Counted from the first letter of the stretch, positions 17,690-27,086 are shown. The stretch: 32,000 nt of DNA from Candidatus Helarchaeota ASGARD archaeon Hel_GB_B (GCA_005191425.1 SUPR01000021.1:1-32000), one strand, 5' to 3'. Made by a program: numbers and translations. Notes: generated by a model not told the origin, from the sequence alone.

Positions 17690-18805
17690 CTAATAAGAAT
17701 CTTCTAACATTTTTTCATATTTATCTTTTAACTTGAAGTAAATATATGCGGGAATAAAGCCGTTCCAAAATTGAAATTCGATGTTTCTTAATTTAGTTTT
17801 TATAGAATTGATGGTAATAGATGATTTTTTAAATATTGATTTGTTTGACTTAGTATTATTGGAGACAGGATCTTGGGTTATGATTTTTAGAAAAACTTCT
17901 TTACCATAATCACAATGAATACTTGATATCATTTGGTTAATTACATGTTTTGGTAATTTATCTTCTAAAATGGCATAGATTTTAGACAAAATTAATAATT
18001 GATTTTGATTTAAGATATTAGACCATCCTGGATCGTCTTTTCGAATAATACATAGAGATTTTTTAACATGATAATTTTTGAGTTTTTCTTTACAAGTTTT
18101 ATTTTTATCACATTTTTCGCATATATAATGGTCATAAGAAACTTTTCCTGTAAAAATATTTATATTAAAAAGACCTTTTGCCGTTAAAATTTCAATTCTC
18201 TTATTATTTTTTATATTAAAACCGAGTTCCGTTAAAACTTCTTTAAACTTTTCATTTTGTTTCTTAATTTCTAAGTTCATTTCTCTTCGTTTTTCTAAAG
18301 TATAGCCAAAATAATCTAATGATAAATTACCAATTTGTTGGAAGAGATTATCTAAATTTAAATCATCTCTATTGATTTCATAATATATAGAATGATATAA
18401 ATTGCAGATTTCATCTATTCGGTCATTCATAGCAGCGGAGATTTCTGCATCATCTAAAGTGTATCCAATTAAAAAGGTAGGAACTGGCCCCAATATATTT
18501 CTAGCTTCAATAATCCAATTGGGAAGATTATTTATGTCGTCCATTTTATTCATTTCAAAAAATAATAATATAGCACAAGAGCCGTGGTAAAATGAAGTTC
18601 TAAAAAATCTGAACCGTTCATTTGCCGAAATGTCCCAAATAGAAAATGTTAATTCGTCATATTCTAACATTTCTTCTTTAATATAGATGTTGCACCCAAT
18701 AACATTAGAATAATCCCGGTTAAAGCAACTGTGAAGATACTTTTTTAAAATAATACTTTTATTTTTACTGCCCAACACAATTACTTTAAATTTAAAAGAA
18801 CCCAA
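17690..18805 (-). CDS. Rab-like pseudo-GTPase fused to a Cys-containing C-terminal domain
   Basis: FKVIVLG...FSIWDISANERFRFFRTSFYHGSCAILLFF is clearly Rab-like, but G1-G5 are degenerate; followed by about 200 extra aa with CEKC-x4-C...C. Confidence 0.8.
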   Translation of the reverse strand: MGSFKFKVIVLGSKNKSIILKKYLHSCFNRDYSNVIGCNIYIKEEMLEYDELTFSIWDISANERFRFFRTSFYHGSCAILLFFEMNKMDDINNLPNWIIEARNILGPVPTFLIGYTLDDAEISAAMNDRIDEICNLYHSIYYEINRDDLNLDNLFQQIGNLSLDYFGYTLEKRREMNLEIKKQNEKFKEVLTELGFNIKNNKRIEILTAKGLFNINIFTGKVSYDHYICEKCDKNKTCKEKLKNYHVKKSLCIIRKDDPGWSNILNQNQLLILSKIYAILEDKLPKHVINQMISSIHCDYGKEVFLKIITQDPVSNNTKSNKSIFKKSSITINSIKTKLRNIEFQFWNGFIPAYIYFKLKDKYEKMLEDSY

Positions 18806-18898: not shown

Positions 18899-20122
18899 TT
18901 ATTTTTTATAGAGATAAATTAACACTAAATAAATTATAAAAAGAAACCCAATAACTATTGTGCCGAAATAAAATATTCTTAAATATTCTAGATGTAATTC
19001 AATTGGAACATCCCATTGTAAGAAATACAAGATAGGAATTATTATTTGAAAAAACGTTATGATATATGAAATAAAATAAGTTAAATTATCTTGATGAAAT
19101 GGAAAATTACGATGATTATTTTTTGAGAATATTTTGTTTTCTATTTTTATAAGTGTAATCAAACCAACAGGGATAATAATTGGAAATCCTAAAAATACAT
19201 TTCTATATACATCGGACGCTAATGCTATTTGAAAAACAAAAAATGGTACCATAATTGAAGAGTATTTTAAAAATGAGTCGTTATTTAGATTATGTGTTTT
19301 ATATATGCTGGGTAAGACTAAAATCCAAATTAAGGAAAATGTAATTAACACACCAAAAACTGAATTCGGCCAATGCGCAATGTGATATCCAATCCAAATA
19401 TTTTCGTATGTAGAGCCAGAGTAGGGAATAAAAGACCTTAAGAATAAATAAATTATGGTAGGAGGAATTGAAATAATAATAGTCTTAATTATTTTATATC
19501 CTTTATAACCTTTCGTAATCATAGCATAAATAGGAATTAAAAATATTATCGTTTCTTTATTGAGAATCCCAATACCCAAAATTAACATCATCAAAATTAT
19601 TTCTTTTGTACCTTTAATTTTACCTCTGGAAATATTTAATAAAATAATACAACCAATTAAAAATAAAAGATATTGCAGTGGATCAACAAAAATTGTATAA
19701 TAAAATAAATAAAAATTAGGTACTGAGACTAAAAAAATAATTGTACCTATTAAAGCATAGAAATTTTTGAAACCTAATAGTTTTAAATAGTGAAAAAACA
19801 ATAATGCTGTTATAAAAATACAGATGAAAGTAAACAACCAATATCCAATCAATGGATCCAATGGAAGCAAATAAATAATTGATGGGGTCAATATTCGATA
19901 GCAAAAAGGAGCATCTATTGCAGAGTTAAATGGAAAAATGCTCATATAATAGTAATGCCAAGCATCACCCCAGGGATGACCTAATGTCCCGGGATAACCG
20001 CGGCTTATTAAATTTAAATGGAATGGGGCTGTTAATAACGCCATTGAAATGGTAATTAACAAAATAAAAAGATATATAGTAATTATTTTACTAAAATTTT
20101 TTAATTTGCCCATTAAACTCAT
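18899..20122 (-). CDS. Polytopic membrane protein, possibly GT-C-fold glycosyltransferase
   Basis: About 10-11 TM segments; TM1 then a loop with WGDAWHYY and PFCYRILTP; later NKET and DVYR loops. The GT-C call is tentative. Confidence 0.5.
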   Translation of the reverse strand: MSLMGKLKNFSKIITIYLFILLITISMALLTAPFHLNLISRGYPGTLGHPWGDAWHYYYMSIFPFNSAIDAPFCYRILTPSIIYLLPLDPLIGYWLFTFICIFITALLFFHYLKLLGFKNFYALIGTIIFLVSVPNFYLFYYTIFVDPLQYLLFLIGCIILLNISRGKIKGTKEIILMMLILGIGILNKETIIFLIPIYAMITKGYKGYKIIKTIIISIPPTIIYLFLRSFIPYSGSTYENIWIGYHIAHWPNSVFGVLITFSLIWILVLPSIYKTHNLNNDSFLKYSSIMVPFFVFQIALASDVYRNVFLGFPIIIPVGLITLIKIENKIFSKNNHRNFPFHQDNLTYFISYIITFFQIIIPILYFLQWDVPIELHLEYLRIFYFGTIVIGFLFIIYLVLIYLYKK

Positions 20123-23979: not shown

Positions 23980-24510
23980 ATGATCAAGGAATACAAATTT
24001 AAAGTCGTTCTTTTAGGTGACCAAGGAGTAGGTAAAACAAGTATTATTGATAGATATGTCAATAACAGGTTTAAAGATAAATATCAGCCAACATTAGGGG
24101 TCGATTTTCTCATTAAGGATATTGAACTCAATGATGCTAAAATAAAATTAATTATTTGGGATATTGGGGGAGAAATTCAATGGAGAAATAAATTAAATCT
24201 GTATCTAAATGGAGCAGACAGCGCAATAATTGTTTTTGATTTGACGCGGGCAGATACATTTAAAAGTCTCAAATTTTGGCATGAAAAAGTCTTAAAAATT
24301 GCCGGCCGAATTCCTTATATTTTCGTAGGAAATAAAATGGACCTTGAGAAAAATCGAAATGTGAGTTTGTCCCAGGTTACGACATTTATTAAAAGGAAGA
24401 GTTATCCATTATATTTAGAAACATCGGCTAAATCTGGTGAAAAAATACAGAAATTATTTTTACGAATTACTGAAGAAATGCTGAGATTTAAAGAAAAAAA
24501 GAATAAATAA
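23980..24510 (+). CDS. Rab-like small GTPase (Ras superfamily)
   Basis: G1 GDQGVGKT, G2 YQPTLGVDF, G3 WDIGG, G4 NKMD, G5 ETSAK; no C-terminal Cys prenylation motif. Confidence 0.93.
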   Translation: MIKEYKFKVVLLGDQGVGKTSIIDRYVNNRFKDKYQPTLGVDFLIKDIELNDAKIKLIIWDIGGEIQWRNKLNLYLNGADSAIIVFDLTRADTFKSLKFWHEKVLKIAGRIPYIFVGNKMDLEKNRNVSLSQVTTFIKRKSYPLYLETSAKSGEKIQKLFLRITEEMLRFKEKKNK

Positions 24511-24608: not shown

Positions 24609-25676
24609 ATGACGTATAATGAATCAGATTTCGAGTTAATAAAAAAGTTGACGGAAACACCTGGTATTGCAGGGCATGAAGATGATATAAGAAAATTAAT
24701 CTATGATGAAATTAAGGATTATTGTGATAAAATTATTGTTGATAAATTGGGGAATTTAATTTGTCTAAAAAAGGGCGTTGATAATGGGCCAAAAATAATG
24801 ATTGCGGCTCATATGGACACAATCGGTTTTATGGTAAAATATATCGATAAGAATGGATTTATACGAATTGAACCGGTTGGTGGAATTGATTCTAGAATCA
24901 CAATTGGTCAATCAGTTATAATTTTTCATAACAAAGAGAGAATAAATGGAGTAATTGCTGCGAAGCCAATTCATCTATTAGATTTAGAGGAAAGAAATAA
25001 AGTTAAAAAAATTAATGAACTCCATTTGGATATAGGGGCTAAGTCTAAGGAAGATGCTGAAAACTTAGTATCAATTGGCGATTTTTTAACCTTTAATTAT
25101 AAATTTAAAAGGCTGGCAAATACTGTTTTTACTTCTGGAGGGCTTGATGATAGAGCTGGATGTATGGTATTAATACAAACGCTTAAATCTCTAAAAGACG
25201 TCAAGCATTTAAATGACCTTTATTTTGTATTTTGTTCACAAGAAGAAATAGGGACTCGAGGAGCCATTCCGTCAGCATTCAGAATAAACCCAGATATTGG
25301 ATTTGTATGTGAGGTTACTCATGCAATTGACTTTCCAGAAATTAAAAAAGAAAAATATGGAGATATTAAACTTGGTGGTGGTCCAGTAATCGATATGGGG
25401 CCAAATATTAACCCAAAATTGTTTAAGAAAATTGTTAAAATAGCTAAAGATAAAAATATACCATTTCAATTAAAAGTAAGTGGCCGACCTACACCAACTG
25501 ATTTGAGAAGTATCCAAATGACTCATGAGGGTGTTGCTACCGCATTAATTTCAATCCCACTTCGATATATGCACACAACAATCGAGGTAATGGATCTAGA
25601 AGATATTAACTCGACAATATCATTATTTACAAAATTACTTCCCATGCTAAAAAAGGACATCGATTTAAAATTATAA
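24609..25676 (+). CDS. M42 family metallo-aminopeptidase (TET/FrvX-like)
   Basis: PGIAGHE, AAHMDTIG, GGLDDRAG, SQEEIGTRGA, CEVTHA, TPTD, SIPLRYMHT. Confidence 0.95.
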   Translation: MTYNESDFELIKKLTETPGIAGHEDDIRKLIYDEIKDYCDKIIVDKLGNLICLKKGVDNGPKIMIAAHMDTIGFMVKYIDKNGFIRIEPVGGIDSRITIGQSVIIFHNKERINGVIAAKPIHLLDLEERNKVKKINELHLDIGAKSKEDAENLVSIGDFLTFNYKFKRLANTVFTSGGLDDRAGCMVLIQTLKSLKDVKHLNDLYFVFCSQEEIGTRGAIPSAFRINPDIGFVCEVTHAIDFPEIKKEKYGDIKLGGGPVIDMGPNINPKLFKKIVKIAKDKNIPFQLKVSGRPTPTDLRSIQMTHEGVATALISIPLRYMHTTIEVMDLEDINSTISLFTKLLPMLKKDIDLKL

Positions 25677-26585
25677 AATATATTTAATTACGTTTGTCAG
25701 ACTCTCAGTAAATGGTTTGATATATTCATTGATCACCTTAACTGCATCGGGGTTATTGTTAAAGGTAACTAAATAAAAAATTTGATTTGATACTTTTAAT
25801 GTCTTAAAAAAAAGCCATCCGTCCATTTGCGCCTGTATAAAATCAGGTACTTTCATTTTATAGGACCTTAATTTTTGTGCCATATTTGCGAAATAGGGGC
25901 CACAAACATGACAAATATTCAGTGATTCGTCATCTTTACTTGCTTCAGATAGAGCAAGAATATTATAATCTAAAAGAATTATTGATAATGAGTCTGTTTT
26001 TTCTAAAAACTCATTTAAATAATCATTTAATACATTCGATTTTGGAAATACATTCCTTAAGCTCTTTGAAAATACAAATAATAACTCTTCTCTATCAAAA
26101 ATAGTAGTTTCATAAAATTTGAATTTTTGAGGCAAATCAGCAAATAAATTTTTCATTGTTTTCACATTTTTTCTAATTCTATCATTGTTCCTGATGTCGG
26201 GATCGCTCTTATGGAGAAAAAATGTGATTTGTGGTAAGGACTCCCTGTCCTTCTCTAATAGTTCCCAAATTTTTAGAAAATATTCTATTGAATCAATAAA
26301 TCGGACATCATCTTGAATATCTATAACCCAAAAAATTTGGTTTGTATTCTCAAAATATTCTCTATGCTCCAAATATTTTTGTTGAAATTTTTTTTGACCG
26401 CCTAAATCCCAAACATAAATTGGTAGCCCAAGTATATTAAATAAACGTTTTGTTTCAAAACTTAAAGTTGGTTTTATATTTTCTATTTTATTGTAAGCAT
26501 TTTCAAGCGCATATAAAATTGAGGTTTTTCCGCTATTGTCTAGGCCTATGAACATTATTTTTAGAATCTCTTTATCTGCATCCAT
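25671..26585 (-). CDS. Arf/Rag-like small GTPase fused to a C-terminal roadblock/longin-like domain
   Basis: GLDNSGKTS, PTLSF, WDLGGQ, HKSD, ETTI; about 120-aa alpha/beta C-terminal domain (SIILLDYNILALS). Start at ATG 26585 or TTG 26600. Confidence 0.85.
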   Translation of the reverse strand: MDADKEILKIMFIGLDNSGKTSILYALENAYNKIENIKPTLSFETKRLFNILGLPIYVWDLGGQKKFQQKYLEHREYFENTNQIFWVIDIQDDVRFIDSIEYFLKIWELLEKDRESLPQITFFLHKSDPDIRNNDRIRKNVKTMKNLFADLPQKFKFYETTIFDREELLFVFSKSLRNVFPKSNVLNDYLNEFLEKTDSLSIILLDYNILALSEASKDDESLNICHVCGPYFANMAQKLRSYKMKVPDFIQAQMDGWLFFKTLKVSNQIFYLVTFNNNPDAVKVINEYIKPFTESLTNVIKYIL

Positions 26586-27086
26586 TTTAGACACTTTCAA
26601 ATAGAATTTAAAAAATGTAAATCGATATGAGTATCTTTTTTTAAATTATTAAATATTTATCCGTAAATTAAGATTTTAATTTTCCGAAAATTTTACAATT
26701 ATTTTATATAATATTCCATTATTTTTAACTCATTTCGATATTTTCTTCATTAGTAAAACAAAATGGTAGAAGTAAAAAGCATTATTTCATTGATATTAAT
26801 AAATTGGCATTCAAACATATTTTAAGATAAATTCAAGGTTATTTGAGAAAAGTTTCTTTAGAATATTTGGTCCTAAATTTTTAATTTAAAAAATTATTGT
26901 TTGAGATTAGGATAAATACGCTGTTATTCTTCTATAAAATTTTATTTTCTCAATTAATATTAATCGATAAAAAATATGAGTTTAAATATGAACCATTAGA
27001 AAAATTGGTAAATCATAGTAAATTAATCAAATTGCGTATAAAATTGAAATAATTTTATTAAATAATATTTAAAAAAAGGAATTAAT

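Follow-up and report, generated by a model that had tools for sequence, protein, structure and literature searches.

A candidate Rab-derived pseudoGTPase family of Asgard archaea, fused to a C-terminal domain with conserved cysteines

A gene at positions 17690..18805 (minus strand) of the window, by which we mean the whole 32,000-nt stretch of DNA analysed, raises the question of what a Rab-like protein does once its nucleotide-binding motifs are degenerate, and what the domain attached to it contributes. The window has a G+C content of about 25% and carries genes typical of Asgard archaea. The gene comprises 371 codons plus a stop codon and begins with a TTG at 18805. An in-frame stop lies 14 codons upstream of this TTG, which aligns exactly with the Met of orthologues starting MG[ST][FY]KFK and was therefore kept as the start; in-frame ATT and ATA codons further upstream were rejected on the same ground. 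Public gene calls (P0003, P0188-P0193) are shorter, with 361, 362 or 326 aa as compared to 371 aa, and the 361-aa form aligns from residue 11 of our reading, inside the first strand, with 97% of the query covered. The public records name relatives 'Rab family GTPase', though the GTP motifs are absent. The C-terminus reads ...KMLEDSY and is devoid of cysteines for prenylation, which archaeal Rab-like proteins generally lack (PMC4915359).

Residues 1-167 (18305..18805, minus strand) were assigned to a Rab/Ras-like G domain by Pfam, AF2 and Foldseek. The Pfam Ras profile PF00071 matched residues 7-158 with an E-value of 1.9e-17 and 63.8 bits against a cut-off of 21.6, and the Roc profile was matched as well. 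In a full-length AlphaFold (AF2) model built with nine sequences the G domain reached pLDDT values of 70-93, and its best Foldseek matches in the PDB were Rab8a, Ypt32/Rab11, Rab1b and Ypt7, with TM-scores by target of about 0.78, the values over the Rab matches being 0.72-0.81. The pTM of the full-length model was 0.54, so that the mutual placement of the two domains is uncertain, and co-folding of the G domain (1-167) with the C-terminal core (168-317) as two chains gave a score of 0.00, which is uninformative either way.

An earlier note on this DNA had described all five G motifs as degenerate. Each was confirmed by alignment with the intact Ras-like gene at 23980-24510 (plus strand) of the window, which also holds a Gtr1/RagA-like gene (25671-26600, minus strand). 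At G1, the P-loop remnant GSKNKS (residues 12-17; 18755..18772, minus strand) is two residues shorter than GxxxxGK[ST]; LGSKNKS stands in place of LGDQGVGKT, the glycine of GK being gone and K-S (K16, S17) being kept. The switch I/G2 stretch SNVIGCNI (residues 33-40; 18686..18709, minus strand) shows YSNVIG instead of YQPTLG, with Val replacing the Thr and a RabF1-like IG retained. In the segment spanning beta3, G3 and switch II, which starts WDISANERFRFF (residues 57-83; 18557..18637, minus strand), WDISAN corresponds to WDIGGE, which means that the Gly of DxxG is changed to Ala while D58 is preserved. At the G4 position (IGYTLD, residues 113-118; 18452..18469, minus strand) NKxD is replaced, GYTLD facing GNKMD, and at the G5 position (YYEINRD, residues 141-147; 18365..18385, minus strand) YEINR has taken the place of ETSAK. 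Among the 43 PF00071 domains of the 3.5-Mb genome, this protein is the sole one that lacks G1, G2, G3 and G4 together, and with 66 bits it scores below a block of 21 canonical Ras domains of the same genome (114-193 bits). Judged from these motifs, the G domain has very probably lost canonical GTP binding.

The Rab-family segment that had been reported as retained, WD..ERFRFFRTSFYHGS, is present at residues 57-76. With the RabF motifs defined as in Surkont and Pereira-Leal (PMC4915359), partial matches outside a formal RabF scoring are seen at IGCNI, FSIW, RFRFFR, FYHGS and ILLFFE. Within the G domain, conservation is highest at the RabF-type interswitch and switch-II residues, in line with the earlier claim that the effector surface is kept. 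The claim of an intact reading frame of about 200 aa beyond the G domain is likewise borne out, since 204 more residues follow, including CEKCDKNKTC, Cys252 and Cys298.

Five orthologues with 55-59% identity, labelled Helarchaeota or Lokiarchaeota where named, carry the same degenerate G1-G5: a short LGxxxKS (P0004-P0006 and P0008), Val in switch I, DIS[APS], GYx[LT][DEN] and YEIx. The reading frame is intact in every genome examined. Nei-Gojobori counts on the two orthologues with DNA sequence gave a dN of 0.31-0.37 for the G domain and of 0.22-0.24 for the C-terminal core, at a synonymous proportion pS of 0.59-0.76; as this is saturated, the ratio lies well below one and its exact value cannot be derived. 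At non-synonymous sites the G domain changes roughly three times as fast as the intact Ras-like gene of 23980-24510 (dN 0.31 vs 0.10-0.12), as is expected if part of the constraint is gone. Between the genomes compared, the whole protein is 58-59% identical, compared to 83-88% for the intact Ras, 78-80% for the Rag-like protein, 52-62% for the adjacent membrane protein and 41-52% for two small ORFs of unknown kind. Split by part, orthologue identity amounts to 65-68% in the C-terminal core, 55-57% in the G domain and 41-45% in the tail. Contigs from four DNA runs depart from the gene at just three sites, by K181M and by silent changes in codons D50 and D58; the depth is low at each, and the number is too small for a population test. 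Among the public runs, none with RNA of the gene is listed. The earlier note had named intact motifs in orthologues together with relaxed selection in this copy as the finding that would speak against it; shared degenerate motifs in five orthologues, a dN far below dS and family-wide motif loss among Asgard homologues with this C-terminal domain point the other way. According to this, the degenerate motifs are conserved under purifying selection and are not a private decay.

A profile of the C-terminal region retrieved 33 proteins from a 90%-clustered collection and 143 clusters, 66 of them with E < 1e-10, from an exhaustive 50%-clustered library. The C-terminal domain profile matches 129 of 400 genomes of the phylum, mostly as one copy and as up to six in genomes of the same order. 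Named members belong to Helarchaeota, Lokiarchaeota/Promethearchaeota, Thorarchaeota (e.g. P0071) and Hodarchaeota, and one MAG carries a bacterial label. The N-terminal parts of 99 family proteins, 98 without the query, matched an HMM derived from this genome's 21 canonical Ras domains. Of these 98, 50 keep none of G1-G5 and 45 keep the switch-I Thr alone. A true NKxD occurs in 0 of 98, the one automatic hit being a chance TKED, and an intact P-loop in only one (P0049, GAVGTGKT), which yet has DIAA at G3 and AKAE at G4. P0049 and P0147, from a neighbouring clade, retain a full-length P-loop. The P-loop lysine is not conserved family-wide, many members having LQAGF or LMAGY, and thirty additional genomic copies gave the same picture of motif loss. 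Conserved throughout the family are K7, G12, G37, W57, R69, F72, G75 and E100, with G12 and G37 at 99% each and the Rab-type W57, R69, F72 and G75 in the switch II segment; these positions correspond to the structural core and the RabF sites of PMC4915359. In a quick maximum-likelihood tree a branch (SH-aLRT 79) sets the N-domains of the fused family apart; they lie next to the genome's canonical Rab-like group and away from Arf, Rag and MglA-like proteins. The query groups with its four orthologues at a support of 99, and P0049 is found in neighbouring groups. This moderately supported tree suggests that the family arose once from a Rab-like GTPase and that G3 and G4 disappeared first, the P-loop decaying afterwards in several lineages.

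The G domain could still be alive, with a reshaped pocket that takes up a nucleotide or some other phosphorylated ligand, and act as a ligand-dependent switch. Nucleotide binding persists in some eukaryotic proteins whose G motifs are poor, and the query's subfamily has retained K16-S17 and the G3 aspartate D58. Since K16-S17 survive and P0049 still has GxxGxGKT, some residual phosphate binding is conceivable, and both the 99% conservation of G12, the first P-loop glycine, and the full-length P-loops of P0049 and P0147 fit such a view. Nevertheless, the P-loop of the query lacks the two residues it would need to reach around the beta-phosphate, the ligands of magnesium and gamma-phosphate (switch-I Thr, DxxG Gly) are gone, the guanine-specifying NKxD and SAK are missing from the query and all orthologues, and the P-loop lysine is not kept family-wide. 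A living switch of this sort, class ii/iii in the pseudoGTPase scheme (PMC12490416) or one of changed specificity, is therefore unlikely in our judgement. Far less credit still is due to a decaying GTPase paralogue devoid of a function of its own: the gene does evolve faster than the nearby intact Ras and Rag-like genes, but its frame is open in all genomes examined, its degenerate motifs are the same at about 57% identity, its dN is far below the saturated dS, its C-terminal core is well preserved between orthologues, and 129 of 400 genomes carry the family, most of them once.

The core of the C-terminal domain was delimited by AF2 and profile searches to residues 168-312 (17870..18304, minus strand). 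An AF2 model of residues 168-371, computed with a 111-sequence alignment, had a pLDDT of 88.8 and predicts a long helix, three strands, a zinc loop, a short fourth strand and three helices, followed by a disordered linker and a helical hairpin. A CxxC-x5-C motif (C229, C232, C238; 18092..18121, minus strand) and C298 within SIHC (residues 295-298; 17912..17923, minus strand) co-vary: the four cysteines are jointly present in 90 of 111 sequences, all of which have all five cysteines, and in 18 of 111, all from one subfamily of about 300 aa, exactly these four are lost and C252 is kept. The joint loss indicates that the four belong together, in the simplest case as a Zn(Cys)4 knuckle with C298 as putative fourth ligand; metal binding is thus predicted. 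C252 belongs to a second set of conserved residues. It lies in LCIIRKDDPGWSN (residues 251-263; 18017..18055, minus strand), which carries a C252-x7-GW motif and is followed by helices with near-invariant K275 and Q291 (17930..17989, minus strand). Over the 111 sequences, C252 was counted 110, G260 108, W261 105, K275 104 and Q291 103 times. No conserved His or Asp accompanies the C252 set in these sequences, which argues against a Cys-His hydrolase. A poorly conserved linker (residues 313-329) leads to a subfamily-specific helical hairpin tail with a KLRNxExxFW motif (residues 330-371; 17693..17818, minus strand).

The earlier note had called this domain unknown and Cys-rich, and had proposed structure prediction and Foldseek as a check. 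These were carried out, and besides revealing the Cys4 set and C252 they left the domain without a match in the libraries. Pfam did not match it in the 371-aa protein and yielded nothing relevant among the 25 families listed at E <=5 for the 111 domain members; NCBIfam gave nothing relevant to it for seven proteins. Two C-domain profiles searched against PDB sequences returned only E-values > 0.4, and Foldseek of the C-domain model against the PDB gave nothing below E = 1. The ESM Atlas had no usable match by features, either for the whole C-terminal part or for the core, and by shape the best TM-score was 0.42 (DUF4132, DUF4304, YbjN, TY-Chap1), none of these being convincing. Weak structural matches over the core comprised YbjN, type-III chaperone folds and MotA, in a range that is common for unrelated folds.

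The domain also occurs apart from a G domain and is thus an independent module. It stands alone with proline-rich tails in P0056, P0060 and P0135, and in the metagenomic proteins P0124 and P0160 the complete domain (Cys4, C..GW, K, Q) lies N-terminal to a TFIIB cyclin repeat. As it exceeds the G domain in identity and holds a near-invariant cysteine outside the zinc site, it may be the functional core of the protein and not an appendage. A helical tail motif, LRELRxLF or KLRNxExxFW, recurs in P0056, P0060, P0135, P0049 and the window protein (residues 335-349); in the stand-alone forms it is present at both ends, next to proline-rich stretches of the NPPP type. It may be a docking motif.

Gene context varied among relatives. 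In orthologue-bearing genomes the genes for an AP-endonuclease-2-type TIM barrel, for a roughly 407-aa membrane protein, for the pseudoGTPase and for an MFS transporter follow each other on one strand; in the window the last two are separated by an MgtE-type gene. The distances from the pseudoGTPase gene to its neighbours are 93-220 bp. The gene directly upstream (18899-20122, minus strand) encodes a 407-aa polytopic membrane protein with no Pfam or NCBIfam match, conserved in position at 52-62% identity. In the Thorarchaeota-type subfamily a SLOG cluster-4 gene comes within about 20 bp downstream and is followed by a calcineurin-like metallophosphoesterase gene at 10 loci (L022:2119-3472 and its equivalents in L018, L023-L026 and L033-L036); this set may be a nucleotide-signal-related operon. 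Another subfamily has UPF0047 and a Rag/Arf-like GTPase as neighbours. A neighbour common to the whole family was not found in 34 loci, neighbours being subfamily-specific, so that context gives no partner for the pseudoGTPase. In those orthologue-bearing contigs that were read, the gene also keeps its synteny with three genes at 5-8 kb, which encode the Rag-like GTPase, an M42 peptidase and the intact Ras; this was not adopted as a functional link.

For the C-terminal domain, a very divergent UBC/RWD (E2-like) fold was weighed, in which C252 would be the catalytic thioester Cys and the Rab-like domain would provide targeting. The predicted elements, a helix, four strands and three helices, come in the order typical of UBC and RWD domains, as in UbcH5. 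C252 follows the fourth strand, with G-W seven residues on and just before the next helix, a spacing that resembles the Cys-then-Trp spacing of E2s; moreover, C252 is conserved independently of the zinc site, and the genome has a ubiquitin-type system with three UQ_con E2 genes. Scores for sequence, profile and structure are, however, not significant: when compared by hhalign with 17 Asgard E2s, the core profile reached a probability of 0.8% over 10 aligned columns, UQ_con, RWD and UEV are absent among the 25 families listed at E <=5 for the 111 members, and the protein itself matches neither PF00179 nor PF05773. The HPN motif and the YPxxPP loop are lacking, a zinc-knuckle sequence inserted before the last strand occupies the place of HPN, and none of the 34 loci has an adjoining ubiquitin-system gene. 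An E2-like fold is thus distinctly unlikely. A broader version, in which the module would be a new thiol-dependent enzyme, possibly divergent E2-like, with an active C252 and mounted on a switch-less Rab-derived domain as a conjugation or transfer enzyme of fixed address, strikes us as quite improbable; if true, small GTPases and ubiquitin-type chemistry would have been joined in one pre-eukaryote family. A role in gene regulation instead of membrane- or trafficking-type signalling would follow if the domain were a zinc-ribbon-type module for nucleic acids or the transcription machinery. The fusions in P0124 and P0160 (Pfam TFIIB 3.3e-05 and 8.8e-11, NCBIfam TFIIB 1.3e-05) place it where the zinc ribbon of real TFB is located, the Cys4 site is present, and the weak structural matches include the MotA DNA-binding domain. 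Such fusions, however, make up only 2 of 10 clusters of odd architecture scanned, no DNA-binding family was matched, and one subfamily without the zinc site keeps the rest of the domain, which means that the zinc knuckle is not the conserved functional element. We regard this role as very improbable.

The reading that we prefer, and consider reasonably probable, is that of a nucleotide-independent, Rab-derived adaptor of the class-i type joined to a new domain with a probably functional site. The product would be a cytoplasmic two-domain protein of an Asgard-wide family. Its N-terminal domain would descend from a Rab-like small GTPase whose contacts to phosphate, magnesium and guanine have been lost, the P-loop being additionally two residues short in the query's subfamily, and it would most likely be free of nucleotide, as in a class-i-type pseudoGTPase. 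In real Rabs the interswitch and switch-II residues form the surface for regulators and effectors. With this Rab-type surface kept and no nucleotide switch to move it, the surface would be frozen in one state and offer a constitutive protein-binding face; from this we infer a scaffold or decoy role, as had been suggested before. The C-terminal alpha/beta module would be stabilised by the Cys4 zinc knuckle, and C252, G260-W261, K275 and Q291 would form a separate site, the 'business end', either as a binding pocket or as a reactive thiol. The pseudoGTPase domain would then be a fixed targeting or docking module for the C-terminal domain. That class-i pseudoGTPases work by protein binding is established in eukaryotes (PMC12490416, PMC5593906); the motif loss, the fold, the co-variation of the cysteines (C229, C232, C238 and C298) and the spread of the domain come from the present analysis.

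With Asgard Rab-like small GTPases (Thor-Rab; Surkont and Pereira-Leal 2016, PMC4915359; Tran et al. 2024, PMC10933270) the protein shares the G-domain fold, the Pfam Ras and Roc matches, RabF-type residues (IG of switch I, W after beta3, RFR and [FY]xG in switch II) and the lack of prenylation Cys. It differs from them by the absence of the five nucleotide-binding motifs, by its shortened P-loop, by a C-terminal region of 200 residues and by an about threefold faster non-synonymous evolution. Eukaryotic class-i pseudoGTPases (p190RhoGAP pG1/pG2, PMC5593906; AAGAB psGD, PMC12490416; CENP-M) likewise have a degenerate GTPase fold that is under selection and attached to other domains, and are thought to work by protein-protein contact and not as a nucleotide switch. 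Unlike these, the present protein is archaeal, seems to have arisen independently from a Rab-like ancestor within Asgard archaea, has a new partner domain, and owes its presumed nucleotide status to sequence. It keeps the switch-II/RabF surface, whereas AAGAB uses the opposite face. The dynein light intermediate chain (PMC4359372) also combines a Ras-like structural module with a following C-terminal region of adaptor function, but it is not related past the superfamily, and the C-terminal part of our protein is a folded zinc/cysteine domain and not a cargo-binding helix region.

A full-text literature search returned no paper joining Asgard with pseudoGTPase, and the passages of the main papers on Asgard GTPases reached by term searches mention no degenerate or fused forms of such kind. 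PseudoGTPases as a kind are known; what appears to be new, as far as the sources searched show, is this archaeal family with its distribution and its graded loss of motifs, together with the C-terminal domain. Few eukaryote-like proteins of Asgard archaea have attracted as much discussion as small GTPases. Roughly one third of the phylum's sampled genomes seem to keep a Rab-derived protein unable to use the canonical GTP site, and counts of 'Rab-like switches' would therefore overstate switching capacity. Turning dead GTPases into fixed binding modules is known chiefly from eukaryotes and appears to have arisen in their archaeal relatives too. Members of the family range from an intact P-loop (P0049) to full loss, a natural series that can serve to study how a switch becomes a scaffold. 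The C-terminal domain, widespread in Asgard archaea and hitherto undescribed, offers a clear candidate for a functional site (C252, GW, K275, Q291).

A 300-aa paralogue (G000:C137:12485-13387, minus strand, identical to L006:808-1710, minus strand) matches the first half of the C-terminal domain at its residues 6-69 (helix, strands, CxxC..C) and, weakly, the LC..G motif near residue 234; about 160 unrelated residues starting KFIILGFNDQEIS lie between. It has no Pfam and no Ras HMM match and may represent an inserted or permuted arrangement of the domain. Two proteins of 367 aa (G000:C152; L044:1279-2382, minus strand) and 429 aa (G000:C178; L045:1120-2409, minus strand) consist of repeated RWD-like units with a C-terminal RING-like Cys/His cluster, a layout that recalls FANCL-type E3 ligases.
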